Source of the DNA: Candidatus Omnitrophota bacterium | GTDB lineage: Bacteria; Omnitrophota; Gorgyraeia; Zapsychrales; Aceulaceae | Reading direction: 5' to 3' | Assembly (NCBI GenBank): GCA_029564765.1 | Contig: JAKQPK010000050.1 | Span: 82,977-146,976 of the forward strand | Length of the DNA stretch: 64,000 bases | In this document: one piece after another, positions 13,471 to 31,986 of the stretch | How the letters are laid out: every line of letters starts with the position of its first letter | How positions within the stretch are numbered: the stretch's first letter is position 1 | The notes under the pieces: generated by a model | What the model saw: only the letters and a program-made list of their open reading frames with translations | What the model was told of the DNA's origin: nothing | Databases searched by the model: none | Position numbers and translations under genes: made by a program

Positions 13471-13477
13471 AAATTTA

Positions 13478-13694
13478 ATTCAAAAGTCAAAATTCAAAAG
13501 TCAAAACGAAAAGATTTCAGAAGCTAAAATTCAAAAGTATGAAGATTTTTTGAGCTTAAAAACGCAACGAATGCAATGGGCTCAATGAACTAAAATTATA
13601 TCTCATTCTACGCTTTAATACACAATGTTTTGATTTTTGGTTTAATAAATCAACCTTCTGCTTTGAATTTTTATTTTTGAATCTTGACTTTAAA
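13478..13694. repeat. MITE-like intercistronic palindromic element, family 1, copy A
   Basis: The terminal inverted repeats are built from tandem units: the left end reads AAGTCAAAATTCAAAAGTCAAAA and the right end TTTTGAATCTTGACTT. The right end is identical to that of copy C. It fills the trpB-trpA gap. Confidence 0.55.
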
Positions 13695-14868
13695 TAATGT
13701 CCTTTATTGACTGCACATCCTTGTCCCCTCGCCCGGAAAGACACACGATCACGGTCGAATTCTTTTTAGCACGCTTAGCAAGTTTTTCCAAATAACCGAT
13801 CGCGTGCGAGGATTCCATCGCGGGGATAATCCCTTCGGTCTTGCACAAAAGCTTCATCCCGGCAATAGCTTCCTTGTCATCGACAGCAACATATTCCGCA
13901 CGCTTGATCTTTTTGTAATAAGAATGTTCTGGCCCAACGCCTGGATAATCCAGCCCCGCGGCGATCGAATGCGCCACCCGCACCTGGCCGTCACTATCTT
14001 GTAACAGATCGCTCTTGCTGCCATGAAGGACACCGGCTGTCCCACGATTCAACGGCGCGGAATGCTTGAGCGTATCAAGCCCTAGACCTGCCGCTTCCAC
14101 ACCGATCATCTTTACGTTCTTATCCGAGAAAAACGCGTGAAAAAGCCCCATCGAATTACTGCCGCCGCCAACGCACGCCAAAAGATAGTCCGGCAAACGT
14201 TTTTCTGCCTGCGCAAACTGCCTCTTGGCTTCTTGTCCGATCACAGATTGGAATTCACGCACCATCACGGGATAAGGATGTGGCCCAGCCACAGAACCGA
14301 TCACATAAAATGTGTTCGCCACATTCGTTACCCAATCACGGATCGCTTCGTTCATTGCGTCTTTTAAGGTCTTTGAACCGCTTGTGACAGGAACAACCCT
14401 GGCTCCTAAGAGTTTCATACGGTAAACATTCAACGATTGACGCTCAATATCTTCCGCGCCCATATAAATATCGCAGCGAAGCCCAAAAAGCGCTGCCACT
14501 GTCGCGGTCGCCACGCCATGCTGGCCGGCACCGGTCTCCGCGATGATCCGCGTCTTGCCCATACGCTTGGCGATCAGGATCTGACCTAAGGTATTGTTGA
14601 TCTTGTGGGATCCGGTATGCAAAAGATCTTCACGTTTAAGATAAACCTTGAGTGTCTTCAGTTGCGCGCTTAAGCGCTTGGCCAGATAAAGATTGGTCGG
14701 CCTGCCGGCGTATTCCTGCAAATAAAAGCGAAATTCTCGCTGGAATGCTGCGTCTTTGCGCAGGCGAACGAACACGCGCTCAAGATCCGCCAAAAGCGTC
14801 ATGAGCGTTTCTGGTACATAACGCCCGCCGAACTCATCAAAATGGCCAAATTTATCGGGTTTTGTCAT
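13690..14868 (-). CDS. trpB: tryptophan synthase beta chain
   Basis: 392 aa. PLP-Lys context (HTGSHKINN) and GGGSN motif. Confidence 0.9.
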
Positions 14869-14880
14869 ATATAGTTTAAA

Positions 14881-14954
14881 GGGTTAAAGGATTTGAGGAT
14901 TTGAGGATTAAAGGGCTCTCCCTTTTCCCCTATAATCCTTTACCCCTCTACCCC
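14881..14954. repeat. long imperfect hairpin built from tandem AAAGGATT/TGAGGATT units, family 2, minimal copy
   Basis: Left arm GGGTTAAAGGATTTGAGGATTTGAGGATTAAAGGG, loop CTCTC, and a right arm that is its reverse complement. It lies between the stop of ORF 14954..15745 and the trpB start. Confidence 0.5.
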
Positions 14955-17138: not shown

Positions 17139-17444
17139 CTAGTCCTTAAATAAATCCTCAGCCCGCAAAGCGCCCGTGGCTTTCTTATAGTCATCATAAT
17201 CTAGAACGCACATGCCTGGATTTTGCTCAATGATCCTGATGATCTTTGGCATATTACCTATCAAGCTGCGAAAGGTGATATATTTAAACGGTGTTTTACA
17301 TTCCGGGCAGACGGTAGAATCAAGCTTTAAGCCCATAGCATTACACTTAGAGCAATTGGCGGTCAGATCGCCGCACAAAAGCGCGTGGCTTTTGACCTCT
17401 TCCACATAAAATTTTTTATAAATTCTAATCACTTTATCGTTCAT
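17139..17444 (-). CDS. small zinc-ribbon protein (two CxxC pairs)
   Basis: 101 aa with CSKC…CPEC. No known family. Confidence 0.5.
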   Translation of the reverse strand: MNDKVIRIYKKFYVEEVKSHALLCGDLTANCSKCNAMGLKLDSTVCPECKTPFKYITFRSLIGNMPKIIRIIEQNPGMCVLDYDDYKKATGALRAEDLFKD

Positions 17445-17476
17445 AGATGAAAAATTATAACATAAAATATATTAAG

Positions 17477-17612
17477 TTGTAAGCTGTAAGTTATAAGTTG
17501 TCCGTTGCCAGCAAAAAGGGCCCCGCAGAAATCCTGCGGGGCCCTTCTCACACCCCTATCATTGACATCTTACATCTGACACCTTACATCTTATGCCTTC
17601 TATATCTTACAA
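17477..17612. repeat. palindromic element built from tandem GTAAG/CTTAC units that flank a central terminator hairpin
   Basis: Left arm TTGTAAGCTGTAAGTTATAAGTTGT. Right arm CATCTTACATCTGACACCTTACATCTTA…CTTACAAC, which overlaps the stop of the giant gene. Confidence 0.45.
17511..17544 (-). terminator. rho-independent terminator of the giant gene
   Basis: On the minus strand an 11-bp GC-rich stem (GGGCCCCGCAG/CTGCGGGGCCC) with a 5-nt loop is followed by TTTTTGC. It lies about 65 nt after the stop at 17607. Confidence 0.7.
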
Positions 17613-20600
17613 CAAGCCCACCTGCGCGTACTCCTCGGCAGGCAAAGCAGGTTCTGCGGGCCGGCCGATAAGTTCTCGATTATCAGAGCCTCTCACCTTG
17701 TTGCTGGGCGTTCCCGCATCCAAGCCGGAGAGCAAAAACAAACTCGCCACAGGCGTGATACCCATGATCTCAAAGGTAAAGCCTTGAATATTCATCAGCT
17801 CTGGCGGCTGCTGCGATATCGGCAAAGGAATTCCGTTTCCGTCACGCTTGATCTGCAGATCCAGCGTCTTAGAATCCATGCTGATACCGCCGAGGTTGGA
17901 GGAAGATTTTCTTTGTTTTTCCAAAACAAAATTATAAATATCCCCAATATTAACCTCATCATACTCTTGTATCTCCATGGACTCCTTAGGAATGATCTGA
18001 GCATGGTTCGGAAGAAGCCGCGAATTAATATCCACGATCATGCGAGCGATCTCGACTGAAGTCATCTTTAAATCATCTCTTAGCTTTGTCGCCAACGTGA
18101 CATTATCTGTTTTTACAACAGAGAATTGTTTTATGATACTAATAACATTTTCAAGCATCTTATCGCTCGTGGTTATAGTTTTTAAAAGAAAATCTAAGCT
18201 TGTTATGCTTCGATGCTGATTCAATCCTGCGATCCGAAATTCTTTTCGTATTGAATTAGGGTGGCTCACACGAACTGTCATTAGGCCAGAGATGTTCTGA
18301 TAAAATAAAACATGGGCCTGCTCGTGATCATCCTGCTTACTATTATAGAACACCAAAAGAACACCATTGACATCCTTGTTGATGTTATCTTCATCTGTGA
18401 TCTGTGTTAACTCGTCTTTAAATGAATCGAGGTCGGCATACTCGTCAATGACGTTCTCATTCTTGTCTGGAACCAATTTTACCAACTCATACCCTTCTTC
18501 CCTCGCAAGGTCAACCATATGATCAATAACGGCAAAAAAGTCTTTCCTGGTCAAGCTCGACGACACAACTTCAAGCTTTTCTTTGATCTTAACTTCAACA
18601 TCTTCTTGCCGCTCCCCTCTGTTTCGAACCAAAAAGCCTTTGTCGCCTTCGCCTTGCTCTGTTTTTCTAACGGCTATCGAAACACCTTTTTCGGTATCAG
18701 TCAAGATAACGACATTCAGCTCTTTTCCCTCTTGCGCATCAAAGGTAAACAAAAGAGAATTGTCCATAGGAGAGTCCGTATCCACCAAATTTTGATGAAA
18801 GATATCCGAACCGTCAAGATCGTAATCCAACCCGTTCCACAAAAAAGACTCGACTTTTTCGCCCATTACATCCTCAACTGCCATGACAGCATCGAGAATG
18901 CTTGCCGTGGGCAAAGACTTGATGATCGTCGACTGAACTCCGTCAAAAGCGAAAGGACTTGTACTTTTCTCGCTCGACCCTGAAGACGTTGTGACTGCGT
19001 CCATAGCCTTAAGCACGGAAAGAGCCTGGGCCAAAAATTTCTGATCGGGAATATTGAGCTCGTCGCCTAAATCCATAGCCTGGTATGCGTCAACGACCAC
19101 AGAACCATTTTCAAGCTTAAATCTAAGGACATCGCCCCAAACGCGATCATTATAGTGAAATTGCAGGCTTATCTGACGCGTCTTAGGATTTCTAAACGTC
19201 ACACGCTGCGCGTCCATAGCGCTGAGGTTGCCCGACGATCCGCCATCAATATCAACATAATTAAAGCTGACTCTGTCAGCACTAATCTCTTTTTGCAAAG
19301 TATTGGCAAGCTCTTCAATTGAGAAATTCTCCGGAAGAACAGCCTTGACGCCCGATGAAGCACCGATAGGGGCTTTCTTGCTCAGGCTAGAGGAACTTGC
19401 TGTTTTCAAAAAGTTGTCCTCTGAGAGCTCAGAAAGAACAGCCGCCACCTGATCCTTAAGCCTGAGGTCTATGGTCTCGATTTTGACGACCTTTCCCTGC
19501 TGAACTAAAAAATGAATATTGCCCATATTTTTATTCAGTTCGCTAGAAATGGAAAAATCAACAGCTTCAGGATCACTGGTCCTGGAAGCAGCATAATCAA
19601 ATTGTCGAGCAACGGCATAATAGCCGATCTTAAAATCAAGCGTTCGCAGGCCAATCTTTTCGCCTAATTTCTCAAGGAATACGCGCAAATCATTACTGAT
19701 CTCTGTTAATTTAAAATCCTTGATGTTTCTTTTTCCTGTGCTCGATTCGCTTTTGACAATTTCTTCGTTATTCTCTATCTTCACCGTTGATGAGAAATTC
19801 TCCGATAAAAACCTCCCGAGATCCGGGACAATTGTTTGCTTAGCGAGCTCCAGAAGTTCAAGATCTTCATTCGGCGTTGCGCCATAAACAGGGGCTGACT
19901 TTGCCCTGATCTCAACACTGCCATCTGGCTGACGCTCAAAGCTTACGACCCAATAAGGTTTAAATCGTTCATATGTCTTCGTAAACTTTATTGTTATTAA
20001 CCCGTTAAAACCACCAAAATTACCCTCGCCTAGTCGTGGGCTGTATATAATCTCGTCTGTTCCCAGATAGTTCTCAATAGTATTAGAAAAATCTCTAAAT
20101 AAATCTTCGATAACGTCCGAAGCCTTCTGACTCATGGCGGTTGGTGTTTCATCAAGCGGCTCGCTCCTTGCCATTGACAAAAAATGTCCCGCAGGAAGAT
20201 TTTGGCGGATCCGGTCGATATCCTCTTGACCTGCGCCAAGAGTTGCAAATCCAGGCCGGACGCCAACAACTTCCCCTCTCTCAAGATCAATCACGACTCT
20301 ATTGGCTGTCCACAAGATTTCAATAGATTGCATGTCTGATTTCTCCTGAACCAAGCCATCTAAAGCATGAGCAACTTCTTCTCTGCTTTCACGGATCTGT
20401 TTGGTGGAGTAAAAATAATAAAAGCTTACCCCATCAAAAATATTTACTGCGCGCAACTCCCTGACACCCAGCTGATCAAGAAATTCAAGGAGCTGATGTC
20501 TGAATTCTCCTGGCATTAATTCGCTTAATTTAGCCGGCGCTGTCGCCTGCGGCGCATCAACAACCCCAGGCTCCTGACTCATGGACTTTAAGATATCTGT

Positions 20601-23600
20601 TGCCAGACGTAACAAGCCTTCGTCATGATTCATTTCACCAGCGGAATTCTGAAATTCTGCTTCTATCTCAATCATCTCGTCCTCAACCTGACGAAGCACG
20701 ATCATATAAGATACATTCTTCGCAGGTTTATGCATAGCCCTATAATCCATCTTATTTTGAGATGAAAAGGAAAATATCACATTTTTTCTCCAGTCAAAAT
20801 CGAGACCGGTGTCGATCAAAAGCTTGCCCTTTGTAGCATCTAGGATTCGCTTAGAAAATTCCTGAACATCAAATTTTGCCCCTTTGAAGCTCACCCTTTC
20901 TTTACGCGAAACGATATCCGCATCATACGGGATCTCTGTCTCGGGCTTAGACGTTTCGGATTTAACTTCTGCCCTCTTTTCTTCTGGAGCGGTGGACAAA
21001 AAGTTTTCGGCTGACAATATATATCGCTGCAGAACCGCTTTCTCATGTTCACGAAATTTTTTATCAAACACCGAAACTTCAGTGACTTTCCGCGTAAATT
21101 CCTCAAAGCTGACAATGATTCTAAAATCCTCTATCTCGAATTGCATAGTGCTTATCGTATCTCCAAAACGCTCCCGAAACGCATCTACAGCATCCGCTAT
21201 CTGAGCTCCGAGCAAAGCATTGTAAGAACGAAAACTATTATTGAAATTACGAATTTCTATAGTTTGCAGCTTTGCATTCCGGTCGAATACCGAAAGAAGC
21301 TCTTTGACATCGCGCTGAATCTTTGCGGAACCTGATGGCAAAAATCCTCTTTTTGCTGACGCTGTTTTGCTCACCTCCGAAACAACAGGTTTTTCCTCCA
21401 GATACCTTTCTAACCCTAAAGTTCGCTGTGCCGGTTCCCCAGAAGGAACACCATCAATATACGTTACAGCTGGCACCTCTTTTTTCTCCAGCGCGGTAGA
21501 AAAAACATTTTCTGATGATAATTTTGAACGGTCAAATCCCGGCAGGCGCATTCCCTGCTTATCTTTTACATGAACATGAATAATTTGTTGCGTGCTCTTG
21601 CTTACAGAGATCTCGATCGAATAAGTCCTAAAAGTAAGCACGATCCCTTCAAGCTTTTGAGTAACAAGCATGCTAAATTTTTCTTTAAATCGATCTATGG
21701 CATCTTTTAGTTTCAACTTGTTGGCATCATAAAGCATGGCAGGGTTAAAAATCTTTATAGTTTCCATCTTTTCTTCGCGCCCGATGATCGAGATGATCTC
21801 CTCAACATCTCGCTGGATCTTTGCAGAATCTGACGGCCAATATCCTCTTTTTTCTGAAACTACCGATTTAACTTCCGCAGCTTTCGGTGTCACGCTAACA
21901 ACAGGATCGCGATAAGAAAGATCCTTGCTCACCAGATAAATATAACTTCCATCTTGAAACCTGATCTGATACGCGAGAGGCTTGCCAGGCCTAGAAAGCC
22001 ACTGATCGATCTTATCTTTCTCAAGAATAGAATGTTGTTCGATATCGATAAAAACTGCCTTTTCTCTGGCAGATAGATCCTTGATCTTTTGTACAGCTCT
22101 TTCTTTTGAGAAATTAGCAGAGATCTGGTCAACGGCTTGCCAATTTTTTTCTTGAGATCCTGACACGACCTTAAGGTAGCTTTCTCGGTCACGCGATGAA
22201 CCCAGGCGAAAATTTCTTTTATCCATAAGGATCGGCGCTATGCGCGCGGCAACTGTTTCTGTTTGCGAAAAAGTCGTTCGCACTTTGTTCGCATCAATGA
22301 TCGCGCGCTTACCCTCATAGCGGACGTTGAGATAATAAGAAGTGCCATTTCCCAATTCTAACCTGATTGATGCTACTGGTTCACGAAGATCAAGGTCTTG
22401 CCATGGGGCTTTTGGATTTGTCACACTGACTCTTTGATATCCGCCAGAACGCAATTTAACGCCCATCGTGCCAACGTCTGATCTTTCATCCTGCATAATA
22501 CGCGTGATCGGGCTGATCAGCTGCTGGCGTGTGATCACACTTGAAGACGCGCTAGAAGTAGGCATCTTTTCAATGATCTCTTTCGCTTTGCGCGCGATAT
22601 TATCCTCTGAAACAGCATCAAAATTCTGCTTTTTGTCATTCCATACAAAGCGTAATGCTGTGATCGATAAGAAAAGGTCATATTGATCGATCATAATTTG
22701 AGTTAAAGGTGAATTTCTGTTTTGTTCCCAGAATTTTACAATCAACCTCTGTCCTGATCCCAAATTCTTTTCACTAAAGAATTCGGTAAACCCAGGCTCA
22801 TGCTCAAGATAAGAACTATCGTTCCATTCCACAGACCATGTCTTGTGTGGGATCCCCTTCCTGAGCGCCATGATCGCTTCATGCGCGTTCAGCGTTCCCG
22901 CAGCACGTTTGATTACTGCAAGGGATGAGGACATTCTCTTATGCTTAGATTTTTGATCATAAGATCGATACATTTTTCCATTCTCGCTTAAGCGCAAGAA
23001 AATCTGTCCATTCTGATCGAATGCATGCATCGTAACCGGCAACTCTGTTTCTGACCATCCATAATAATAATCCCGAAAGTCTAAGCCGTAGTACTCTTTC
23101 TCGCTTTCAGACAGTTGCTGTGATTCTGCATGCCAAACCGCGGTAATAAACGGTTTGATGTTTCCATCCTGGTCAGTTCCGGAGATAAAATAAGGATCCG
23201 CCTGATACTCTTTGATAAGCACAGCGGCAACTTCTCGACCAGTGGTAGCTGGGATCGAAGCCAGCGTAGAAGAAACCGACTGAGTCGGGGCTACCAACAA
23301 ATCTGTCCCGCTTCCGTCAATATCAACTCCTACATAAACAATCGTCACATTATCAAGGATCAAATGCCCATCGCTGCCACGCTTGAGAATACCTTTGTCA
23401 AAATAATGCTGATATTTCGCCTTTGATAGAAGCTCATCCAGGTTAATTTCTTGATCCGTATCGTTACGCAACTCAACCGTTCCAATGTATTCTGGTTTGT
23501 TCAGAGTCCACTTCCCTGCCACATAAAGAAGATCCAGATCCAGCGTTTTTGAACCCAGCGGGAGAATTTTGTAAGCGTTCACCTTGTTTTTCTGATAGTA

Positions 23601-26600
23601 ATCTTCGTAATTTTTGGAAAATTCGAATCGCGCCAAGTGGCCTGGCTTATTATTTTTCATAGCCCATTCTTTAGTATCCATGGCAAAATGCTCGGATAAA
23701 TAATAATTCCAATCCAAAGCAAACTTAACTGGCGTAAAGCATAGCTCACGATACTCAGGTGTAAAATTCACGATGTGCAGCAAGCGCGTCCATCCATACT
23801 TTTTCATCAGGTCTTTTACCTTCTGATTTTCTGTATAGCGCACATGATAATCGAGATTCTGAAGAACATGGCCCAAGGCGCCTTCGATCTGATAGATCGT
23901 CCCGCCCTCTTTTGGATTATCAATGAAGGTTGGCGATGTCCACTGTACATACTGTTCATGTCCAATGATCTTTTCCAGTTCACGCAAAAATGGCTGAAGC
24001 ACAGTTTCGTTAATGCCCATAATGTTGGTATTAAAGAACTGTTCACCTTCCTGGCCTGCTTCCTCGATCGCGCCAGCAGTGAGGCCGATCTTTTGAAAGA
24101 GCTCGCCCTGGCCAACCTTGCCAGCCTGGACAGTTTCCATCATATTGATACGGGTATTCTCAGCAGTAAGATCCTGCAGCAAAAGGCCATCCTCGACAGG
24201 CTGAGCACCAACCTTCCCACCTTTTTTATCTAATTCCATGGTTGTCGATGATAAAAGAACCATGGGGATCTTGTTGGACGCCATCCAGCCTAAAACAACA
24301 GATGGGATTTGATTGTTTGGACCGTCCCCATTAGTAATATCGCGGATCACCACTTTGTCTTCTGGTAAAATGTCAGTAAGAACTTCTTCAAAAGCCATTC
24401 GTCCAAAAACACCGTGTCCGCCTGGAGAAGTTTTGCGATCGGTCAACTCTCCGGTTACCACATCCACAACAGGCTGGATCGCCTGAACGACCATATCTTC
24501 ATCGAATCTAATGCCTTGCAACCCTCTGACGTATTGAGCATAAGTGCGCTTTTGGCCTTCGGGGATACGATCATCGATCTTATCAAGAAGGCAAATGTGT
24601 TGATTGCGAAAATCTGAAATAGGACCGACCGTATCTTTACTGACAAGCTCACGAATGCTGGCGTGCGCAACACGGCCTTCTTGAGCGGTAATGATGTTGT
24701 GGACATATTTCACATCTAAAATACTGAACTCCACATCCTTGAAAACCTTAGGGTTGCCATCCTTATCAAACCCTTGAAGTTCTTGGACAAACGTCAAGGC
24801 CATGGATTTCGCCCCGACTCCTCCCACAGAAGTCCCTGCTCCGCCGTTCATAAAATCAATGCGATGGTCAACATTCTTAGCAGCCTCAAGATACTTCTTC
24901 TCCTGCGATAAGATCTCTGTTGCGAAATCCGTCGCGTTCATGATCTCTTTCATTTTTGACTTAGGGATCATAGAATTTGGGAAGAAATTCTGGCCGATCA
25001 CCAGATCATTCACGATCCCTTTTTGCTTATCGACCATTTGCTGATTATATTGAGAAACGAGACTTGCGAAATAATCTCTGTTAAAAGTGCTGCCAGGATT
25101 ATCCATGCCTAATTTTTTGACAAACGGATCGATCTCTTCTTTTGAAATGGTACGAATGCTCGAAGACACAGCTTCTTCTTTGTCTTCTGCCAGCGGCATC
25201 CCCTGTGACACGAACTCCCAGAAATCCGCTTTTTTGGCTCGATGAAGAACAACATAGCCATCACGGATAAACATCTTTACCGTCAAAGGTTCTCTGGCGT
25301 CTTGCGGTATAGAAGCAATCTTTTCAGCCATGAGACTTTTACTGTTAGGCCTATAAAACTCTGTTTGCTTGATATCGTCGCTTGTTAACCTTAGAGCCAT
25401 ATTTTCCGCGACGATCTCTGTTGCCATTTCTTTTAAATCCACATTGGCGCGAAACTTAGGGACATTGATGGAACCGCCCAGCTCATTCCATCTGGCTCCT
25501 TCATCCTTAAAATTAAATCCTTGACCGTAAAACTGCGTTATCTTCCATCGGCTATTTGCTGTGTCTTTGGCAAAGATCAAAGAAGTTCTGTCTTTAAAGA
25601 ACATCGTAACCTTCTTGGCTTTTGGCAAAATAACGCTTAGACGGCCTGAAGCCTGCGGGTCGCTCAAAGAAAATCCGTAGGAATATCCTTCCTCTGTGAG
25701 AATATTGAAACTTAAAAGCACTTTCCCTGTCAACTCGAGCTTGGACGTGATCTCGCGTAAAAGAACAGATGCTGGCTCTAAAGACGATACCCTTGAGATG
25801 ATCGCCGAGGCGGAAACGCCTGTTCCCCACTTTACCTCTATATTCCATCTATTACGGTCGATGCGCGTAAGTACTATTTGTTTATTCCCGTTTTCATCAT
25901 AATAAACTTTAATTCTCGCAACTTTCCTTTCTGGCTTATCATCTAAGAAAGTGCTCTGCATCTCAGACCTGTGTCTGCCACTCCACCCCCCAGTATCGTA
26001 TTCTGCATAAACATAAACATAATCACCGCCATATTGTCGAGCGATTGCTTCCAATGCACTCCATCCTGCATCATGCCCGGGAGCTTCTATCGCCGAGGCG
26101 GAGGATCTGTTATCATCTTCACTTTTCAATAGCTTAGCATCAAATCTCGTTGCACTTCCCTTTGTTTGCAATTTATCTGCGGATGGAGTGACCTTTTCTA
26201 GAGCCTGACGCAAAGGGGTCCCGTCAGGAGTAGTTGGCGTGAAACCGCCAGAAAAATACTTGCGGGGAATGTTCTTTCCCGTATGCTGATCCCTCTCAAC
26301 CTTGATAAAATCATAGATGCCTTTTTGAAAAGCATTCAAATAATCCTCGTAGATCTTTTGCTTTTCAGAGCTATCCACAAGATCAATGCCTTTTATCTTA
26401 TTCTGATCCATGTAGATCTTGCCAAGCAAGCTTTCCTTTAGATTGTTCTTATACCAAGTGGCCAGGATCATCGCGTAATAGACCTGCCTTAGGCTCGCAA
26501 AATGCTTTCCGAAGTTCACTTCTTTTTCGATGGCCGGAAGAACAATTTCACGGACGATCTGAGAAGAAAGAGAACTGGTCGTTAGTATTTGGTCGCTAGT

Positions 26601-27326
26601 ATTTAGTGGTTGGTTTTTACTAGATACTACATACTCTCGACTATCGACTCGTTGCTTTGCTTGCAAAGCAACGTAATCTTCTTCCATCACGACGGCCAAT
26701 TCGCTGTCAACAACAAAAACCCTATTGTTGTTCTCGTAAACTGTTGCTTTTTTAGGAAGGATCCAGATCTTGTTGAACGTGTCGATCGGGATGTCGGTAG
26801 TTCCGTATTTCTCGTAAGCTGCCTTGTAAACCTTTTCCCAGAACTTTTTGCCAAGCTCGTCTTCCGGGTATATTAAGGAAGCAGTAAGCTGCTTTAAGAT
26901 ATAATCCTGAGCTAAAAGATCTCGACCCATCTGGGTCTGACCAAAGCCTTCCGGGATAATACGATCTTTTTCATAAGGCGAAAGGTTGACCCACATGTCT
27001 TTTTCAGGAGTTGTCAAGGAGGCTAAAAAGTAGCGGATCAGCTTCTTGGCTTCTTCGGTCAAGGCCTCGCCTTCCATGGCTGTATCACCGCTATCTACGA
27101 TAAACCCAAAATGAAAAGGATTACCGGGGTCAATCTCGATCGCTCGTAACAAAACAGGATAAAAACTTGCTGTTGGCGCAAGCATCGTGCTTGGCGCCGA
27201 AAGCCCTGCAGATAGGCCCTGGGCGTAGCTGGGAGCAATAGAGGTAAAAAGAAAGCTGAGAGTGATAAGAACAGAGATGATCTTTGACGCGAATCTTCTT
27301 TGGGCTTTGTTACCGCAGGCGATCAT
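17607..27326 (-). CDS. giant secreted multidomain protein (3239 aa) with an internal UDPGP-family nucleotidyltransferase domain
   Basis: One uninterrupted ORF with an AAGGAG SD 8 nt upstream. The N-terminus is a Sec signal peptide (…SFLFTSIAPSYA/QG). The internal motifs MNGGAGTSVG, SPGGHG and ITNGDGPNN match UDP-glucose pyrophosphorylase hallmarks. The rest has no assignable domains. Confidence 0.85.
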   Translation of the reverse strand: MIACGNKAQRRFASKIISVLITLSFLFTSIAPSYAQGLSAGLSAPSTMLAPTASFYPVLLRAIEIDPGNPFHFGFIVDSGDTAMEGEALTEEAKKLIRYFLASLTTPEKDMWVNLSPYEKDRIIPEGFGQTQMGRDLLAQDYILKQLTASLIYPEDELGKKFWEKVYKAAYEKYGTTDIPIDTFNKIWILPKKATVYENNNRVFVVDSELAVVMEEDYVALQAKQRVDSREYVVSSKNQPLNTSDQILTTSSLSSQIVREIVLPAIEKEVNFGKHFASLRQVYYAMILATWYKNNLKESLLGKIYMDQNKIKGIDLVDSSEKQKIYEDYLNAFQKGIYDFIKVERDQHTGKNIPRKYFSGGFTPTTPDGTPLRQALEKVTPSADKLQTKGSATRFDAKLLKSEDDNRSSASAIEAPGHDAGWSALEAIARQYGGDYVYVYAEYDTGGWSGRHRSEMQSTFLDDKPERKVARIKVYYDENGNKQIVLTRIDRNRWNIEVKWGTGVSASAIISRVSSLEPASVLLREITSKLELTGKVLLSFNILTEEGYSYGFSLSDPQASGRLSVILPKAKKVTMFFKDRTSLIFAKDTANSRWKITQFYGQGFNFKDEGARWNELGGSINVPKFRANVDLKEMATEIVAENMALRLTSDDIKQTEFYRPNSKSLMAEKIASIPQDAREPLTVKMFIRDGYVVLHRAKKADFWEFVSQGMPLAEDKEEAVSSSIRTISKEEIDPFVKKLGMDNPGSTFNRDYFASLVSQYNQQMVDKQKGIVNDLVIGQNFFPNSMIPKSKMKEIMNATDFATEILSQEKKYLEAAKNVDHRIDFMNGGAGTSVGGVGAKSMALTFVQELQGFDKDGNPKVFKDVEFSILDVKYVHNIITAQEGRVAHASIRELVSKDTVGPISDFRNQHICLLDKIDDRIPEGQKRTYAQYVRGLQGIRFDEDMVVQAIQPVVDVVTGELTDRKTSPGGHGVFGRMAFEEVLTDILPEDKVVIRDITNGDGPNNQIPSVVLGWMASNKIPMVLLSSTTMELDKKGGKVGAQPVEDGLLLQDLTAENTRINMMETVQAGKVGQGELFQKIGLTAGAIEEAGQEGEQFFNTNIMGINETVLQPFLRELEKIIGHEQYVQWTSPTFIDNPKEGGTIYQIEGALGHVLQNLDYHVRYTENQKVKDLMKKYGWTRLLHIVNFTPEYRELCFTPVKFALDWNYYLSEHFAMDTKEWAMKNNKPGHLARFEFSKNYEDYYQKNKVNAYKILPLGSKTLDLDLLYVAGKWTLNKPEYIGTVELRNDTDQEINLDELLSKAKYQHYFDKGILKRGSDGHLILDNVTIVYVGVDIDGSGTDLLVAPTQSVSSTLASIPATTGREVAAVLIKEYQADPYFISGTDQDGNIKPFITAVWHAESQQLSESEKEYYGLDFRDYYYGWSETELPVTMHAFDQNGQIFLRLSENGKMYRSYDQKSKHKRMSSSLAVIKRAAGTLNAHEAIMALRKGIPHKTWSVEWNDSSYLEHEPGFTEFFSEKNLGSGQRLIVKFWEQNRNSPLTQIMIDQYDLFLSITALRFVWNDKKQNFDAVSEDNIARKAKEIIEKMPTSSASSSVITRQQLISPITRIMQDERSDVGTMGVKLRSGGYQRVSVTNPKAPWQDLDLREPVASIRLELGNGTSYYLNVRYEGKRAIIDANKVRTTFSQTETVAARIAPILMDKRNFRLGSSRDRESYLKVVSGSQEKNWQAVDQISANFSKERAVQKIKDLSAREKAVFIDIEQHSILEKDKIDQWLSRPGKPLAYQIRFQDGSYIYLVSKDLSYRDPVVSVTPKAAEVKSVVSEKRGYWPSDSAKIQRDVEEIISIIGREEKMETIKIFNPAMLYDANKLKLKDAIDRFKEKFSMLVTQKLEGIVLTFRTYSIEISVSKSTQQIIHVHVKDKQGMRLPGFDRSKLSSENVFSTALEKKEVPAVTYIDGVPSGEPAQRTLGLERYLEEKPVVSEVSKTASAKRGFLPSGSAKIQRDVKELLSVFDRNAKLQTIEIRNFNNSFRSYNALLGAQIADAVDAFRERFGDTISTMQFEIEDFRIIVSFEEFTRKVTEVSVFDKKFREHEKAVLQRYILSAENFLSTAPEEKRAEVKSETSKPETEIPYDADIVSRKERVSFKGAKFDVQEFSKRILDATKGKLLIDTGLDFDWRKNVIFSFSSQNKMDYRAMHKPAKNVSYMIVLRQVEDEMIEIEAEFQNSAGEMNHDEGLLRLATDILKSMSQEPGVVDAPQATAPAKLSELMPGEFRHQLLEFLDQLGVRELRAVNIFDGVSFYYFYSTKQIRESREEVAHALDGLVQEKSDMQSIEILWTANRVVIDLERGEVVGVRPGFATLGAGQEDIDRIRQNLPAGHFLSMARSEPLDETPTAMSQKASDVIEDLFRDFSNTIENYLGTDEIIYSPRLGEGNFGGFNGLITIKFTKTYERFKPYWVVSFERQPDGSVEIRAKSAPVYGATPNEDLELLELAKQTIVPDLGRFLSENFSSTVKIENNEEIVKSESSTGKRNIKDFKLTEISNDLRVFLEKLGEKIGLRTLDFKIGYYAVARQFDYAASRTSDPEAVDFSISSELNKNMGNIHFLVQQGKVVKIETIDLRLKDQVAAVLSELSEDNFLKTASSSSLSKKAPIGASSGVKAVLPENFSIEELANTLQKEISADRVSFNYVDIDGGSSGNLSAMDAQRVTFRNPKTRQISLQFHYNDRVWGDVLRFKLENGSVVVDAYQAMDLGDELNIPDQKFLAQALSVLKAMDAVTTSSGSSEKSTSPFAFDGVQSTIIKSLPTASILDAVMAVEDVMGEKVESFLWNGLDYDLDGSDIFHQNLVDTDSPMDNSLLFTFDAQEGKELNVVILTDTEKGVSIAVRKTEQGEGDKGFLVRNRGERQEDVEVKIKEKLEVVSSSLTRKDFFAVIDHMVDLAREEGYELVKLVPDKNENVIDEYADLDSFKDELTQITDEDNINKDVNGVLLVFYNSKQDDHEQAHVLFYQNISGLMTVRVSHPNSIRKEFRIAGLNQHRSITSLDFLLKTITTSDKMLENVISIIKQFSVVKTDNVTLATKLRDDLKMTSVEIARMIVDINSRLLPNHAQIIPKESMEIQEYDEVNIGDIYNFVLEKQRKSSSNLGGISMDSKTLDLQIKRDGNGIPLPISQQPPELMNIQGFTFEIMGITPVASLFLLSGLDAGTPSNKVRGSDNRELIGRPAEPALPAEEYAQVGLL
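20900..21860 (-). repeat. two tandem ~160-aa intragenic repeats inside the giant gene
   Basis: Repeat 1 reads …KRGYWPSDSAKIQRDVEEIISII… and repeat 2 reads …KRGFLPSGSAKIQRDVKELLSVF…. The DNA copies are about 480 nt apart. Confidence 0.6.
23400..24880 (-). other. UDP-sugar pyrophosphorylase-like (UDPGP, PF01704-type) domain inside the giant protein
   Basis: These motifs correspond to the LNGGLGTSMG, PPGHGD and NIDNLGA motifs of eukaryotic-type UGPase. The domain is encoded at roughly aa 810-1300 of the giant protein. Confidence 0.6.
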
Positions 27327-27480
27327 GAAACTTCTCCTTTTTTAACAACTTGTTAGGATAAAAATTGGTCAATATACGTACTCAAAGGCTAAAAGAGCAA
27401 GCCTTAAACCTTTTTTCCGTGGCAGGAATTTAGAACAAAATTAGATAAGAAAGCGGTTTCTTTTGGGAAAATATAGCACA

Positions 27481-27921
27481 TTTTTATAAATTTTCAAGGT
27501 CAGCTTATGTACGGGAGGGCTTGCGGACCTCTATCAAAGAAAGGAGTGCTTTTAAATGATCACGACTTACGAAGGCCTTGGCCGAGATCAAATCAGCCCA
27601 CGCGAATTTATTCCGCCAAAAGCGGAGGCACGAAATCAGGATAATCGTATTAGTATTTTTGGACTCCTCACAAAAAGATTGCTCGGAGTGTTTTTTCTTG
27701 GCTAAGTTAAAATAAGAAGGAAGAAAAAATAAGAAAGAGCCGACAAAGTATGTCCACTTCGGCAACCCAGCCACCGTCTTGTCATCCACTGCGGCCCAAC
27801 CGGCCCTTGAGGTAGCCCCAGCACCACTCCGGGTGCGGGACGCAAGCTGCTTCAGACAACTTAGGTCTGTGGTTTTGCGCCCCCGGGTTTCCCCGGGTTT
27901 GCCTTTATCGGCTCATTTGAG
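27481..27921. other. unexplained structured non-coding segment flanked by 11-bp direct repeats (AATATAGCACA); candidate ncRNA, long leader or small insertion
   Basis: The direct repeats lie at 27469-27479 and 27922-27932. A second repeat, GAAAGCGGTTTC, occurs at 27450 and 27970. The segment contains GC-rich hairpins (CCCGGGTTTCCCCGGG, GGCCCAACCGGCC). The only in-frame material is a 49-codon plus-strand ORF (27555-27701) preceded by an AAGGAG motif and a spurious 94-aa minus-strand ORF. Confidence 0.25.
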
Positions 27922-27990
27922 AATATAGCACAGAAAAGATCGATAACAAGGGGTGAAAAGGGGCTTCGGGAAAGCGGTTTCAAAATATGA

Positions 27991-28191
27991 AAAAAGGATT
28001 AAAGGATTAGAGGGCTAAAGAGTTAGAAAGGTAAAAACTTTAAGGAGAAACCAAAATACGAAAATTATAAAAACAAAGTTTCCGCTTAAAGTTTAAGCCG
28101 ATGATTCTCAATTCTTTTTTTCTTGCTATTTTCAAATCTCCTAAAGCCCTTTAACCCTTCAATCCTCTAACCCTTTAATCCTAAAACTTTA
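27991..28191. repeat. palindromic element, family 2, long copy (arms of AAAGGATT/AGAGGGCT units flanking a ~90-nt core)
   Basis: Left arm AAAAAGGATTAAAGGATTAGAGGGCTAAAGAGTTAGAAAGG. Right arm CCTAAAGCCCTTTAACCCTTCAATCCTCTAACCCTTTAATCCT, which is its reverse complement. The right arm overlaps the last codons of the exonuclease gene. Confidence 0.5.
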
Positions 28192-28876: not shown

Positions 28877-29003
28877 GCAAATAAAATGACTCAATGACCA
28901 AGCTCGAATGTCGAATCAATATCTCAAATCCTAATATTTCAATTGGGCATTGAATCATTGGGGTTTCATTCGTCATTAGGATTTCGTCATTGGTCATTGC
29001 GCT
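28877..29003. repeat. palindromic element, family 3 (arms of AATGAC/CAATGA units)
   Basis: Left arm AATGACTCAATGACCAAGCTCGAATGTCGAATCAAT. Right arm CATTCGTCATTAGGATTTCGTCATTGGTCATTG. It lies between the trpF stop and the exonuclease start. Confidence 0.45.
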
Positions 29004-29617
29004 TCACCTTTTTGCTTCTTTAAAAATTTTCTCATTAAGCGCAGACATTTCTTTCCCGGACGCCGCTCTACTCCGCTGGAAACATCATAGGCATAAATAT
29101 TCTTAAGTTTTACAGCTTCAACAATGTTCTCTGGATTCAAGCCGCCGGACAAGATGATCTTCTGTTTCTTAAGTGCAGATTCTTGCAAGATGTCCCAATC
29201 AAAAACTTTCCCTGTTCCCCCGTGCACGCCTTTAAGATACGTATCGAACAACAAAAATGAAGTCTTATACCGCAAAGCTCTTGCAACATCCTGCTTGTGC
29301 TTGACACAGATCGCTTTGATCGTGATGACCTTCTTTATCTTAGAACAAAAAGCGGGTGTCTCATTGCCATGTAACTGAACTACTCTTAGACCACATTGCG
29401 CGACAATGGCTTGGATGTTCTTGAGCGATTCATTAACAAAAACGCCTACCGGCAGAACGGATCGAGGAAGGGACGCGATAATTCTTTTGGCAGTATTCGG
29501 ATCAATATATCGAGGACTTTTACGATAAAAAATAAAACCCAGCGCCCAAGCGCCAAGACGGTGCGCCCTGTGCGCGTCTTCCTTGTTTGTAATACCGCAA
29601 ATCTTAATTCTCGCCAT
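28994..29617 (-). CDS. trpF: phosphoribosylanthranilate isomerase
   Basis: 207 aa with a typical PRAI sequence (ARIKICGIT…). Confidence 0.85.
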   Translation of the reverse strand: MARIKICGITNKEDAHRAHRLGAWALGFIFYRKSPRYIDPNTAKRIIASLPRSVLPVGVFVNESLKNIQAIVAQCGLRVVQLHGNETPAFCSKIKKVITIKAICVKHKQDVARALRYKTSFLLFDTYLKGVHGGTGKVFDWDILQESALKKQKIILSGGLNPENIVEAVKLKNIYAYDVSSGVERRPGKKCLRLMRKFLKKQKGEAQ

Positions 29618-30395
29618 ACATTACTTCCCTTACCTTGGCGCCAACATCATGTGCGCGCAAAAAAGTCTCGCCGATCAACACCGCGTGAGCGCCCAACTGC
29701 TGAAGTTTCCGAATCTGTGTCTGATCCTTGATCCCGCTTTCAGCGACGATCGTGATCCCTTGTGGGATAGACGGAATCAGCTTTTCGCAGGTTGCAAAAT
29801 CAACGTCCAAAGTTCTTAAATTTCGATTATTGACCCCGATGATCTTGGCTCCGCTATTGATGGCGCGCTGAAGTTCTTTCTCGTCATGGACCTCGACTAA
29901 AGCATCCATGCCTAAGCCGTGAGCGGTCTCAAGAAGCTGTTGTAGATTTTTATCCGTAAGGATGGCAACGATCAACAGCACCGCGCTACTGCCGAACGAA
30001 AAGGTTTCAAAGATCTGCACCTCGTCAATGATAAAATCCTTGGTCAAAACAGGCAAGCTTACATGCTCAGCCACCTCACGCACATACGGCGGCTTACCTA
30101 AAAAATACTTATCTTCGGTCAAAACAGAAATGGCAGCTGCGCCAGCTTTCTGATAGGCATACGCTAGATCCAACACGCTAAAATCACCACGTATAACCCC
30201 TTGAGATGGTGAAGCCTTTTTGATCTCAGCGATAAGATTTAGCTGGCCCGGTTTTGATATGGCTTTCTGGAATACGTGATACGCTGTATGCTTGTCATTC
30301 TTATTCTTTGCCTTAAGCTCCTGTAGGAAGACTTTCTTCTTTTCGATCAGGCCTTGTTTGTAAACGATGATATCTTTTAGGAAATCTTTTGTCAT
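29604..30395 (-). CDS. trpC: indole-3-glycerol phosphate synthase
   Basis: 263 aa with a TIM-barrel IGPS sequence. It overlaps trpF by 14 nt and trpD by 4 nt. Confidence 0.9.
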   Translation of the reverse strand: MTKDFLKDIIVYKQGLIEKKKVFLQELKAKNKNDKHTAYHVFQKAISKPGQLNLIAEIKKASPSQGVIRGDFSVLDLAYAYQKAGAAAISVLTEDKYFLGKPPYVREVAEHVSLPVLTKDFIIDEVQIFETFSFGSSAVLLIVAILTDKNLQQLLETAHGLGMDALVEVHDEKELQRAINSGAKIIGVNNRNLRTLDVDFATCEKLIPSIPQGITIVAESGIKDQTQIRKLQQLGAHAVLIGETFLRAHDVGAKVREVMYGEN

Positions 30396-31399
30396 TGATT
30401 AGTGAACGCGATCAAGGAATCAAGTTTTTCTTTGGCTTTTTTTGTATCGACCGATTGGCAGGCTGCCTCTATGCCCTTATGAACTGTTGGAGTTCTGCCA
30501 GCAATATACAACGCGTAAGCGGCATTTAAAATAACGATATCTCTTTGGGCGCCAGTCTGACCGCTTAGAACATCAGAAATGATCTGCGCGTTGGTTTCAG
30601 CGCTTCCCCCCTTAAGGTCTTGAGGAAGAGCTCTTGGAATACCGTAAAAAGATGGATCGATCTCATATGAAATGATGTCTTGGCCATTATATTCGCTAGC
30701 AAATGTCTTGGCAGTGGTCGTGATCTCATCTAAGCCATCCTCTCCATGCACCACCAAGGCTTTCTTTAATCCCAGGTTCTGCAAGACATGCGCCATGGGC
30801 TCAACCAATTCCTTGTTGTAAACGCCCATCATCTGATGCGTAGCTTTAGACGGATTCGTCAGAGGCCCCAAAACATTAAAGATCGTCTCAACCCCTAGTT
30901 CTTTGCGAACCGCGGCCGCGTAACGCATCGCCGGATGTAAATTTTGCGCGAATAAGAAAGCGATGCCCACCTGATGCAGGCAATCCGATAAACGCTCGAC
31001 TTTCATGCCAACGTTGACACCCAGATACTCAAGCACATCCGCGCTACCACATTTACTGGAAACGGAACGGTTACCATGCTTGGCCACTACGCAGCCAGCG
31101 CCAGCGACCACGAAAGCGACGGCGGTCGATATATTGAACGTGCCGGCCCTGTCACCTCCAGTGCCACAGGTGTCAAGAACGACATCCTTATCTGTATCCA
31201 CTGCGATCGCGAACTCTCGCATGATACGCGCTGCGCCGGTGATCTCATTGACCGCGGCCCCTTTCTTACGCAACGCTAAAAGAAACGCGCTAAGCTCCTC
31301 TTTCGGCACTGTTCCGGTCATGATACGTCGCATTACATCAGACATCTCTTGGGCGGTGAGGTCATGATGTTGCTGGATCTTGTCGATATACTCTTGCAT
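30392..31399 (-). CDS. trpD: anthranilate phosphoribosyltransferase
   Basis: 335 aa with the GTGGD motif. Confidence 0.9.
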   Translation of the reverse strand: MQEYIDKIQQHHDLTAQEMSDVMRRIMTGTVPKEELSAFLLALRKKGAAVNEITGAARIMREFAIAVDTDKDVVLDTCGTGGDRAGTFNISTAVAFVVAGAGCVVAKHGNRSVSSKCGSADVLEYLGVNVGMKVERLSDCLHQVGIAFLFAQNLHPAMRYAAAVRKELGVETIFNVLGPLTNPSKATHQMMGVYNKELVEPMAHVLQNLGLKKALVVHGEDGLDEITTTAKTFASEYNGQDIISYEIDPSFYGIPRALPQDLKGGSAETNAQIISDVLSGQTGAQRDIVILNAAYALYIAGRTPTVHKGIEAACQSVDTKKAKEKLDSLIAFTNQ

Positions 31400-31412
31400 A
31401 CAGATAGAAAAT

Positions 31413-31985
31413 TTATTTAGGGTTTAAGATTAAAAAATTCTGGAGCAACTTTTTGCCTTCTTTGGTCAAAATAGACTCCGGATGAAATTGAACACCCCAA
31501 AGCGGATATTGCTTGTGGCGAACGCCCATGATCTCTTTGTCTTGGGTCCAGGCGATGATCTCTAAGCAATCCGGTAATGTCTTCTGTTCGATCACTAGGG
31601 AATGATAGCGTGTCGCTTCAAAAGGATTGGAGAGGCCTTTGAAAATTTCTTTTTTATTGTGATAGATCAAGGAGGTTTTTCCGTGCATAAGTTTTTTCGC
31701 GCCGATGATGCTCCCGCCATAGGCATAGCCAATGGCCTGATGGCCTAAGCAAACCCCTAAGATCGGGATCTGACCGGCAAATTCTCGTATTAACGCAACA
31801 GATATACCTGCATCCTCTGGCCGTCCCGGCCCAGGAGAGACAACGATACGTTCCGGCCGCATGCTTTTGATATCATCGATCGTGATGGCATCGTTGCGAA
31901 AAACCTCAACATCCGCTTTCAATTCAGCCAGGTACTGGACGAGATTATAGGTAAAGGAATCATAATTATCCAGCATGAGGATCAT
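31413..31985 (-). CDS. trpG: anthranilate synthase component II / glutamine amidotransferase (TrpG/PabA)
   Basis: Class I GATase with catalytic Cys in GVCLGHQ. The likely start is MILMLDNYD, so the tracked ORF 31413..32018 is trimmed to avoid an overlap with murA. Confidence 0.85.
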
Positions 31986-31986
31986 G

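Follow-up and report, generated by a model that had tools for sequence, protein, structure and literature searches.

A divergent UDP-glucose-pyrophosphorylase-type module within a putatively exported Omnitrophota protein that has a conserved head and tail

What might an enzyme domain of the kind that uses UTP and a sugar-1-phosphate be doing in the middle of a very large protein that appears to begin with a signal peptide? This question is raised by a gene at positions 17607–27326 (minus strand) of a 64,000-nucleotide stretch of DNA from a Candidatus Omnitrophota bacterium (contig JAKQPK010000050.1, positions 82,977 to 146,976; hereafter the window), which encodes 3239 amino acids and a stop codon in a single uninterrupted open reading frame (ORF). 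We have found that residues 736–1345 of the encoded protein form a divergent module of the UDP-glucose pyrophosphorylase (UGP) type, and that this module lies between an N-terminal head and a C-terminal tail that recur in a very large number of related sequences. That the protein is a member of an Omnitrophota family of head/tail carriers, which we define here, is in our view as good as certain.

A UGP-type module in an intact gene

An initial annotation, made from the sequence alone, had matched about 490 residues in the middle of the protein to the UDPGP family (PF01704). Membership of this family is borne out by profile and fold evidence, but the module is larger than had been thought, running from approximately residue 736 to residue 1345 (610 residues; positions 23292–25121, minus strand). 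Searches with the single sequence find little. The full-length protein has no UDPGP match in Pfam and the excised residues 736–1345 have no match there at E ≤ 0.01; phmmer finds nothing in the PDB with the whole protein and gives a best E of 0.2 with the excised domain, in an alignment that is colinear with Leishmania UGP; and only two proteins are returned when the domain by itself is used in a word-indexed homologue search. A significant match to the family, which the single sequence does not give, is obtained with a profile of homologous modules. Fifteen such modules from other proteins are 26–43% identical to residues 736–1345, PF01704 is matched by 13 of the 16 aligned modules (best E 1.3e-16), and a joint profile of all 16 retrieves 16 solved UDP-glucose pyrophosphorylases from the PDB with E-values of 6.6e-20 to 4e-14.

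The fold tells the same story. An AlphaFold model built on the 16-module alignment (predicted local distance difference test score, pLDDT, 87.2; predicted template modelling score, pTM, 0.88) contains the parts of the UGP fold, namely a Rossmann-like nucleotidyltransferase core, an N-terminal helical part and a C-terminal β-helix. When the model is compared with the PDB by Foldseek, the 34 best matches are all UGPs (E 1e-21 to 6e-16; TM-score 0.62–0.75 on the target, and 0.68–0.75 for the top matches), from Leishmania, yeast, Arabidopsis, sugarcane, Trypanosoma, Aspergillus and human, while UDP-GlcNAc pyrophosphorylases (UAP/AGX) and USP match more weakly by about nine orders of magnitude (E 1e-12 to 1e-11). 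On this profile and fold evidence we have next to no doubt that a UGP-family domain occupies the middle of the protein, and the assignment of the module as closest to the eukaryotic-type UDP-glucose pyrophosphorylases is supported.

The three motifs that had been noted from the sequence alone are all present, NGGAGTS at residues 827–833, PGGHG at 968–972 (containing H971) and NGDG at 999–1002 (containing N999 and D1001), and with them K840, DKKGG at 1033–1037 (K1035), FNTN at 1098–1101, IEGALG at 1147, FTPVK at 1197–1201 (K1201) and D1205. The catalytic and ligand-binding residues of these motifs lie in columns that are invariant or at least 90% conserved and that align to the canonical motifs of 8C0B; the catalytic lysines and aspartate whose conservation the initial annotation had proposed to check (K840, K1035, K1201 and D1001) are all kept. 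The lysine of the PVK motif is presumably the counterpart of the one reported to be essential in plant UGPases, as in the potato enzyme. The module thus resembles the solved members of PF01704 (2OEF and 4M28 from Leishmania major, 2I5K, which is yeast Ugp1p, 2ICY from Arabidopsis and 3R2W, which is human UGP2) in whole-domain fold, with a TM-score of 0.65–0.75 normalised to the target, in a colinear series of motifs (the NGGxGTS loop, the GAKS lysine, PGHG, N-x-D, D-x-KGG, FNTN, E-G/A and F-x-P-V-K) and in the C-terminal β-helix-like tail, which forms the third aligned stretch of the profile match. It differs from them in about 100 extra residues contained in insertions, in having only two cysteines, in reading GHGV (GHGQ in most relatives) and in its setting, since UGPases are free cytosolic enzymes whereas this module is embedded in a 3239-residue bacterial protein bearing a signal peptide.

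We considered the idea, already present in the initial annotation, that the domain is a repurposed binding module or pseudoenzyme, in which the UGP fold would have been kept for binding alone, its ligand being a glycan, sugar-phosphate or nucleotide-sugar on a partner cell, and the domain would be a lectin-like adhesin part of a surface giant. An exported domain would be without substrates, the sequence is so divergent that the query alone fails Pfam, the canonical GHGD has changed to GHGV, and large Omnitrophota proteins have often been proposed to be adhesins. Nevertheless, every catalytic motif is kept (the glycines of the nucleotide-binding loop, K840, H971, N999/D1001, K1035 and K1201 of PVK), and a comparison with an orthologue on another contig (L001) gives a ratio of nonsynonymous to synonymous substitution (dN/dS) of 0.058/1.23 = 0.05, which is the strongest constraint in the gene. 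The module also recurs fused to enzymes that act at adjacent pathway steps, since it adjoins PGM in P0004, P0005, P0006, P0008, P0017 and P0095 and UDP-glucose dehydrogenase in P0094. Because the motifs are retained, dN/dS is 0.05 and these pathway neighbours co-occur with the module in paralogues, we disfavour the pseudoenzyme idea and think it improbable. Judging from the motifs, the module is probably active, with a putative reaction in which a nucleoside triphosphate and a sugar-1-phosphate are interconverted with a nucleoside diphosphate sugar and pyrophosphate.

The gene that encodes the module has its own Shine-Dalgarno sequence and its own intrinsic terminator, as had been claimed. The former, AAGGAG (27334–27339, minus strand), lies 7 nt 5' of the ATG; the latter (17513–17544, minus strand) consists of an 11-bp G+C-rich stem with a GATTT loop and a TTTTT tail (GGGCCCCGCAG-GATTT-CTGCGGGGCCC then TTTTT), lies 63 nt after the stop codon, and was found from the sequence itself, the pattern scanner not having listed it.

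Could this gene be an artefact of assembly or annotation in which an enzyme gene has been joined to unrelated ORFs? Its closest homologue, P0001, lacks the UGPase module, and parts of the mid-gene sequence have no other relatives. Against this, the ORF contains neither frameshifts nor stops, and dN/dS lies between 0.05 and 0.31 in every segment, the orphan parts included, and so stays below 0.35 all along the gene. Moreover, L001, which lies on an independent contig of a metagenome-assembled genome (MAG; CAZAOD010000001.1), is colinear with residues 487–1327 of the query at 88% identity and so crosses the N-side junction of the module; P0232, a partial protein from an NCBI Candidatus Omnitrophota MAG, provides an independent and 100% identical record of most of the C-terminal part; P0002 still holds a remnant of the module's tail; and the same architecture is found in 13 other listed relatives. 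Because L001 has the UGPase module at 90% identity, a chimera is very unlikely, and we give it a negligible chance. We note that dS varies several-fold among segments of the same gene pair, from 0.26 to 1.77 (residues 1–413 versus 487–1327 of the query with L001; segments compared with the orthologous locus L081), and therefore a mosaic history is suggested, with recombination between paralogues or strains behind the differences.

A head/tail family, its cargo and its predicted export

A search with the full protein gives more than 1,200 significant matches, of which those with a named source are from Omnitrophota and those listed are 1,800–5,300 residues long. Coverage of the query among the 120 listed relatives is strikingly uneven: residues 1 to about 400 are matched in all 120, residues 3100 (approximately) to 3239 in 101, and residues 750–1350 (approximately) in 13, with other regions matched by almost none. 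The initial annotation had stated that the protein outside the UDPGP match contains no recognisable domain. This is true for Pfam, NCBIfam and PDB searches, which recognise no domain outside the UGP module, but not in the wider sense, since residues 1–365 and approximately 3138–3205 prove to be strongly conserved modules of the family.

The head module comprises residues 36 to about 365 (26232–27221, minus strand). Residues 1–365 are 50–88% identical to all 120 listed relatives, and a search with residues 1–400 yields, at E ≤ 1e-3, matches in 7,941 sequences that each represent a 50%-identity cluster (6,176 at E ≤ 1e-30), always at the N-terminus of the protein and at about 55% identity. An alignment of 27 sequences has 67 invariant columns in the head, many of them charged or aromatic, as in the motifs WVNLSPYE, AQDYILKQ, E-x-E-x-N-x-G and RKYFSGG. 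There are at least 584 head-encoding loci in species-representative genomes, in bins of which most have the label Omnitrophota and some the automatic label 'Planctomycetales' or 'bacterium', with several such loci per genome, for example five each for DATDQB01 and JAJDCA01 among the top 80.

The tail module comprises residues 3138 (approximately) to 3205 (17712–17915, minus strand; GGISMD...LQIKRDGNGIPLP...GFTFEIMGITPV..LFLLSGL) and was delimited by BLAST, by jackhmmer, in which it is common to 201 of 232 sequences, and by an alignment (A4). Its consensus of about 60 residues is GGI[DN]L..LQIKRDGNG.PLP..QQP....I.GF.PVIINITPV.NLPLLLG, followed by an acidic stretch of variable length; the query has a variant of it, which at residues 3146–3205 in A4 reads GGISMD...FTFEIMGITPV...LFLLSGL. 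We rejected the tail as a transmembrane anchor, the hydrophobic stretch being short and the family consensus rich in Pro and Asn. Sub-threshold Pfam and NCBIfam matches at the C-terminal end (DUF1128, 15.8 bits; acyl carrier protein, 17 bits) were taken as noise. None of 32 family C-termini matches the C-terminal sorting domain of type IX secretion (PF18962) at E ≤ 0.1; one relative, P0112, has a precomputed PF18962 match whose position in the protein is not given. We also note that many members of the family end in [ED]-x-[VLI]-S-[LVM]-L-N-COOH after the acidic tail (e.g. P0008, P0025, P0028 and P0030; A4), a motif that might act as a recognition signal at the terminus; in the query the last residues are EEYAQVGLL.

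Between head and tail lies fast-evolving sequence. Residues 366–735 (25122–26231, minus strand) form a lineage-specific spacer with Ser-rich linkers near residues 408, 505 and 721, has homologues only in P0001, P0002 and L001, and has a dN/dS of 0.15–0.30. Residues 1346–3137 (17916–23291, minus strand) form an orphan region with relatives only in P0001 and P0232 and a dN/dS of 0.18–0.31 in the comparison with L081; a word-indexed homologue search with this half of the protein returns two proteins. Self-BLAST of the whole protein shows no repeats, and an array of repeats was rejected for the orphan region since chunked searches gave only one diverged tandem duplication, of residues 1812–1951 and 1977–2122 (20961–21893, minus strand; 30–59% identity in chunked BLAST, E 1e-35 to 1e-48 in jackhmmer).

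The UGPase module itself comes and goes between orthologues. P0001, encoded in L081, is a syntenic orthologue with the same neighbours as the query (trpG-trpD-trpC-trpF, the PolB-like exonuclease gene and then the same leader) and 64–88% identity over the aligned segments, and it lacks exactly residues 724–1337. P0002 keeps only the C-terminal tail of the module, and L001 has the module in the same place at 90% identity. To judge from these comparisons, the UGPase is an exchangeable module, flanked by the conserved head and tail. Indeed, other family members carry other cargo in this position, as seen in their precomputed Pfam content: enzymes of glycolysis and sugar metabolism (PGM, UDPGP, PGK, PGI, FBPase, aldolases, TIM, GAPDH, PGAM and enolase), PPDK/PEP synthase, isocitrate lyase (ICL) with malate synthase, starch/glycogen synthase, branching enzyme, UDP-glucose dehydrogenase and acyl-CoA dehydrogenase, as well as response-regulator receivers, GGDEF, HD, NUDIX, methyltransferases, GNAT and protein kinase. 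Some combinations follow the order of a pathway, such as PGM with UGP (six proteins), UGP with UDP-glucose dehydrogenase, enolase with PGK, PGK with PGAM, and ICL with malate synthase. PF01704 is carried by 13 of the 120 listed relatives, all the same kind of protein, a count that is inflated among top matches because these also match the query's own module; some relatives are already named UTP--glucose-1-phosphate uridylyltransferase by NCBI.

A protein in which the catalytic cargo varies between a conserved N-terminal part and a short, likewise conserved, domain at the extreme C-terminus, and which has many paralogues that differ mainly in their cargo, is reminiscent of MARTX toxins and of the cargo of type IX secretion. 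In MARTX toxins, conserved repeat regions flank swappable effector domains. By analogy, the head and tail might together be a translocation device that works in the MARTX manner and delivers the cassette to the cytoplasm of a host or prey, where carbon of the host would be diverted, as UDP-glucose or glycogen, to the benefit of the parasite. The cargo would suit such delivery, since it consists of cofactor-dependent enzymes of cytoplasmic type (PGM, PGK, GAPDH, enolase, PPDK, acyl-CoA dehydrogenase, kinases and NUDIX) whose substrates exist only in cells, and UTP and glucose-1-phosphate are present in a host or prey cytoplasm; the polymorphic, cassette-like variation with several paralogues per genome, the host-dependent or predatory lifestyle inferred for Omnitrophota and the putative control by a riboswitch described below, which would suit a switch of lifestyle, also fit. 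The family has no sequence or fold relation to MARTX toxins, to type IX cargo or to any known translocator, however; Pfam and NCBIfam show no RTX-type repeats and no cysteine-protease domain, no processing protease domain, pore-forming repeats or transmembrane segments were detected, no secretion or injection genes lie nearby, and some 1,800 orphan residues would be left without a role; we regard delivery into another cell as unlikely. The cargo also differs in kind from that of MARTX toxins, consisting of enzymes of central metabolism and not of toxins.

Whether the protein leaves the cytoplasm at all depends on its N-terminus. Residues 1–35 (27222–27326, minus strand) have the anatomy of a Sec signal peptide for signal peptidase I (SPase I), as the initial annotation had recognised: by inspection there is a basic n-region (K7, R10, R11 and K15), a hydrophobic core of 15 residues (I16–I30), a helix breaker (P32) and small residues at –3 and –1 (S33-Y34-A35|Q36), with no Cys at +1 and hence no lipobox. 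Cleavage is predicted after A35, which is invariant in the 27-sequence family alignment, P32 and Q36 being kept in at least 90%. AlphaFold places a helix at residues 7–30 and a disordered stretch after it, and a hydrophobicity scan of the protein gives only one further window, a weak one, at the extreme C-terminus.

A second line of evidence comes from cysteine. The protein has 3 cysteines in 3239 residues (0.09%), one of them within the signal peptide, compared with 1.16% in the 36 other ORFs of the window (binomial P 4e-13). Among 164 family members of more than 1,500 residues the median is 0.07% and the maximum 0.35%, so the family holds about one-sixteenth of the cysteine of neighbouring ORFs despite the cytoplasmic-type enzyme domains that it carries. 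Cysteine exclusion is a trait of exported proteins in several bacterial groups, and that the family is almost free of cysteine therefore fits export. We conclude that the 3239-residue protein is very probably exported, to judge from these sequence features, and that the initial annotation was right to place it among the large proteins of an uncultivated lineage.

A different topology could be drawn from the same N-terminus. Were the hydrophobic segment an uncleaved anchor, the body of the protein would remain in the producer's own cytoplasm as a membrane-tethered metabolon, scaffolding enzymes of sugar-nucleotide synthesis and gluconeogenesis. These enzymes need cytoplasmic substrates, and single proteins hold pathway-consistent pairs (PGM with UGP, enolase with PGK, ICL with malate synthase); moreover, West-Roberts et al. 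warn that where such domains are predicted to be extracellular, the topology could have been wrongly assigned (bioRxiv 10.1101/2023.11.21.568195). Under the positive-inside rule, however, the basic residues before the hydrophobic core place the body outside, and the core is just 15 residues long, with Pro and the conserved small-x-Ala|Gln site after it. Cytoplasmic enzymes are also hard to reconcile with the exclusion of cysteine across the family. Conservation of the signal peptide and cysteine exclusion together disfavour a mispredicted topology, and we think a cytoplasmic metabolon distinctly improbable.

The leader and the neighbouring genes

The leader of the gene contains an aptamer of the cyclic di-GMP (c-di-GMP)-I riboswitch class (27757–27912, minus strand), for which the best Rfam model is RF03167 (c-di-GMP-I-GGC). 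The match scores 61.7 bits against a gathering score of 59 (E 3.7e-12), spans the full model (1–80) and lies on the coding strand, 430 nt 5' of the start codon, with an 81-nt insertion in the second hairpin. Just upstream of it is a promoter-like site, TTGTTA-16-TATATT with a TG before the –10 hexamer (27922–27949, minus strand), recognised by its match to the consensus; this site and a second one nearer the gene, considered below, are conserved in the orthologous leader of L081. Downstream, a hairpin GCCGA...TCGGC with a T-rich tract (27724–27762, minus strand), read from the sequence, is a candidate expression platform. The 5' arm of this hairpin is the 3' strand of aptamer helix P1, and folding pairs the region with the 5' end of the aptamer; on its own, the hairpin does not exceed shuffled sequence in folding stability. 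The hairpin and T-tract could be a ligand-sensitive terminator. We know of no established ligand for the GGC variant (RF03167), and we take both a cyclic dinucleotide as ligand and the polarity of the response as putative.

The same aptamer is present in the leaders of the orthologues L001 (2124–2279) and L081 (5614–5783), and related aptamers lie 5' of paralogues with unrelated cargo, in L004 (2036–2182; P0101, with kinase, methyltransferase and HPr), L023 (1968–2118; P0085, with enolase and PGK) and L057 (2129–2209). In L023 the match is to RF01051 (62.1 bits against a gathering score of 35). Most of the other copies are similarly long to the one in the window. An nhmmer model of the riboswitch found L001, L004 and L023 among 80 sampled loci and, on a re-run, L081; because L057 was the one addition from Rfam scans of the whole set of 80, the riboswitch is a minority feature of the family, and no other c-di-GMP-I-class matches were found in the approximately 450 kb scanned by Rfam. 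Like the c-di-GMP-I (GEMM-I) riboswitches (RF01051/RF03167) found in the leaders of genes for large surface or adhesion proteins, this is an above-threshold aptamer in the 5' leader and on the coding strand of a gene for a large, putatively exported protein; it differs from them in being a GGC variant with an 81-nt insertion, in its distance of 430 nt from the start codon and in the promoter-like site that intervenes.

Other features of the leaders are noted here for completeness. The L081 leader, which is otherwise 91–97% identical, lacks a 219-nt segment (27500–27718, minus strand) that in the window separates the riboswitch from the proximal promoter-like site; neither the rest of the window nor the fetched loci contain a copy of this segment. 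A 94-aa leader ORF (27505–27789) was taken as spurious, since it overlaps both the aptamer and this lineage-specific insertion. In some paralogous loci a tRNA gene lies 240–400 nt 5' of the family gene on the same strand (L006, 2106–2194; L011, 2010–2098; L064, 2193–2263).

The giant gene sits among housekeeping genes. The trp operon of the window is split (12679–14868 and 28994–32018), with trpG-trpD-trpC-trpF upstream and trpB-trpA downstream of a block of about 14 kb that includes the giant gene, genes for a PolB-like 3'-5' exonuclease, an M20 peptidase and a DUF3108 protein, and a small ORF of the zinc-ribbon kind; L081 has kept the upstream half of the arrangement. The small ORF (101 aa; 17139–17444, minus strand) lies directly past the terminator of the giant gene, has two Cys pairs in a zinc-ribbon-like arrangement (CGDLTANCSKC...CPEC) and no Pfam match, and is preceded by a promoter-like site of its own (CTTACA-18-TATAAT, 17454–17483). 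Just downstream of the exonuclease gene are the arms of a 31-nt inverted repeat of the AGGATTAAAGGGTTAGAGG type (27995–28025 and 28152–28182; 84% complementary, 126 nt apart). A repeat of the same type is found again at 14873–14917, between trpB and the DUF3108 gene, and it may be an intergenic element like the repetitive extragenic palindromic (REP) sequences. Matches to MIR8562 on both strands at 27995–28182 were rejected as an artefact of the inverted repeat.

Possible roles of the protein

We propose that the gene product is a Sec-exported modular carrier protein, in which a cleavable signal peptide would be followed by a head of about 330 residues, a fast-evolving spacer and a tail of about 60 residues, and that enzyme cassettes would be inserted into, or deleted from, the spacer between head and tail. 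The cassette in the window would be a divergent nucleotidyltransferase of the UDP-glucose pyrophosphorylase type, probably catalytically competent, and the conserved ends would most likely hold the protein in or on the cell envelope. Together with paralogues carrying PGM and enzymes of glycolysis, gluconeogenesis and glycogen synthesis, it could form an extracytoplasmic layer of sugar-phosphate and nucleotide-sugar enzymes used in contact with a host or prey, and the riboswitch in the leader would couple its expression to a cyclic-dinucleotide signal. Taken as a whole, the Sec-exported carrier seems to us a plausible account, with about as much to be said for it as against it. The use of an envelope-bound enzyme layer in host contact is a more tentative part of it. 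Of the readings that bear on how substrates are supplied, we prefer an envelope-bound layer that acts on material from a contacted or lysed host.

Several findings weigh against this proposal. An exported UGPase would be without an obvious supply of substrate, because neither UTP nor a sugar-1-phosphate would be expected beyond the cytoplasm, and there are no secretion-system genes in the 64-kb window. The module is 14–18% identical to solved UGPs in the Foldseek alignments, a level at which sugar specificity cannot be read. When residues 780–1300 are excised, Pfam returns only PF01704, with E 0.017 and 14.3 bits over 17 residues at the glycine loop, against a gathering score of 22 bits that is an operational threshold and not a biological feature; and the residue after GHG is Val in the query, where most relatives have Gln and canonical enzymes have Asp. 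The head has no Pfam, PDB-sequence or fold match and the tail no Pfam or PDB match, and because neither has a recognisable fold, an anchoring or sorting role for them is a conjecture. Finally, the aptamer is found in only 4 of the 80 sampled family loci, in each case at the same position and on the same strand, and a second promoter-like site (TTGAAA-16-TATATT with a TG before the –10 hexamer; 27470–27497, minus strand), again recognised by its match to the consensus, lies between the riboswitch and the gene.

The initial annotation had also regarded a UTP-dependent nucleotidyltransferase within a secreted protein of this size as an undescribed architecture. This did not hold up, given the relatives that carry PF01704, the names that NCBI has assigned to some of them and two preprints that report sugar-phosphate enzymes in long, signal-peptide-bearing proteins of Omnitrophota. 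West-Roberts et al. 2023 (bioRxiv 10.1101/2023.11.21.568195) describe very long multi-enzyme proteins of Omnitrophota ('Archaeovorins'), and Nielsen & Lui 2026 (bioRxiv 10.64898/2026.06.07.730766) describe Omnitrophota 'multi-enzyme metabolic clusters'; the topology surveys in both place metabolic domains on the periplasmic or extracellular face, with West-Roberts et al. urging caution about errors of prediction. Giant ORFs have elsewhere been discussed as possible adhesins (Seymour et al., PMC10066038). The protein resembles these giants in phylum, in its N-terminal signal peptide, in the presence of sugar-phosphate-pathway enzyme domains (in the giants PGM, PGI, TIM, FBPase, aldolase, PPDK and starch synthase) on the predicted extracytoplasmic side and in a mostly unannotatable, poorly conserved interdomain sequence. 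It differs in that the giants run to 10,000 residues or more, or to 30,000 or more, and have many transmembrane helices, HEAT repeats and glycosyltransferases, whereas our protein has 3,239 residues and one enzyme, no HEAT or glycosyltransferase matches in Pfam, and one N-terminal hydrophobic segment with a weak C-terminal one. The main texts of the preprints, as searched, do not mention PF01704, riboswitches or c-di-GMP, that of 2023 does not contain the word 'uridylyltransferase', and passages of both that use the term 'N-terminal' concern signal peptides and peptidase domains rather than a conserved head (10.1101/2023.11.21.568195; 10.64898/2026.06.07.730766). What is apparently new, then, is the definition and size of the head/tail family, the presence or absence of a cassette between orthologues, the exclusion of cysteine across the family and the recurrent cyclic-dinucleotide riboswitch.

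It is possible, and we offer this as speculation, that the head and tail define a platform for export and display (or injection) that is specific to Omnitrophota and has not been described before, through which ultra-small, host-dependent bacteria would place hundreds of cysteine-free 'cytoplasmic' enzymes outside their own cytoplasm. The near-complete set of enzymes for gluconeogenesis, UDP-glucose and glycogen might then make up an external or host-internal carbon compartment, with cassettes exchanged between paralogues and part of the family placed under a riboswitch.

The head/tail family links the 'giant genes' of this phylum to tractable proteins of 2–5 thousand residues that are open to expression and assay, and the motifs WVNLSPYE, AQDY[ILM]LKQ and GGI[DN]L...PVIINITP offer a simple way to pick out the family's members, which fall into at least 7,900 sequence clusters. 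The UGPase module, which is compact and well modelled, is a good first candidate for biochemistry, and the link to a riboswitch offers a testable regulatory signal for the biology of host attachment in an uncultivated phylum. Should these enzymes work beyond the cytoplasmic membrane, part of the central sugar metabolism of Omnitrophota would take place in the envelope, within another cell or where two cells meet. This would change the genome-based metabolic reconstruction of these abundant nanobacteria, in which such domains are now counted as cytoplasmic steps.

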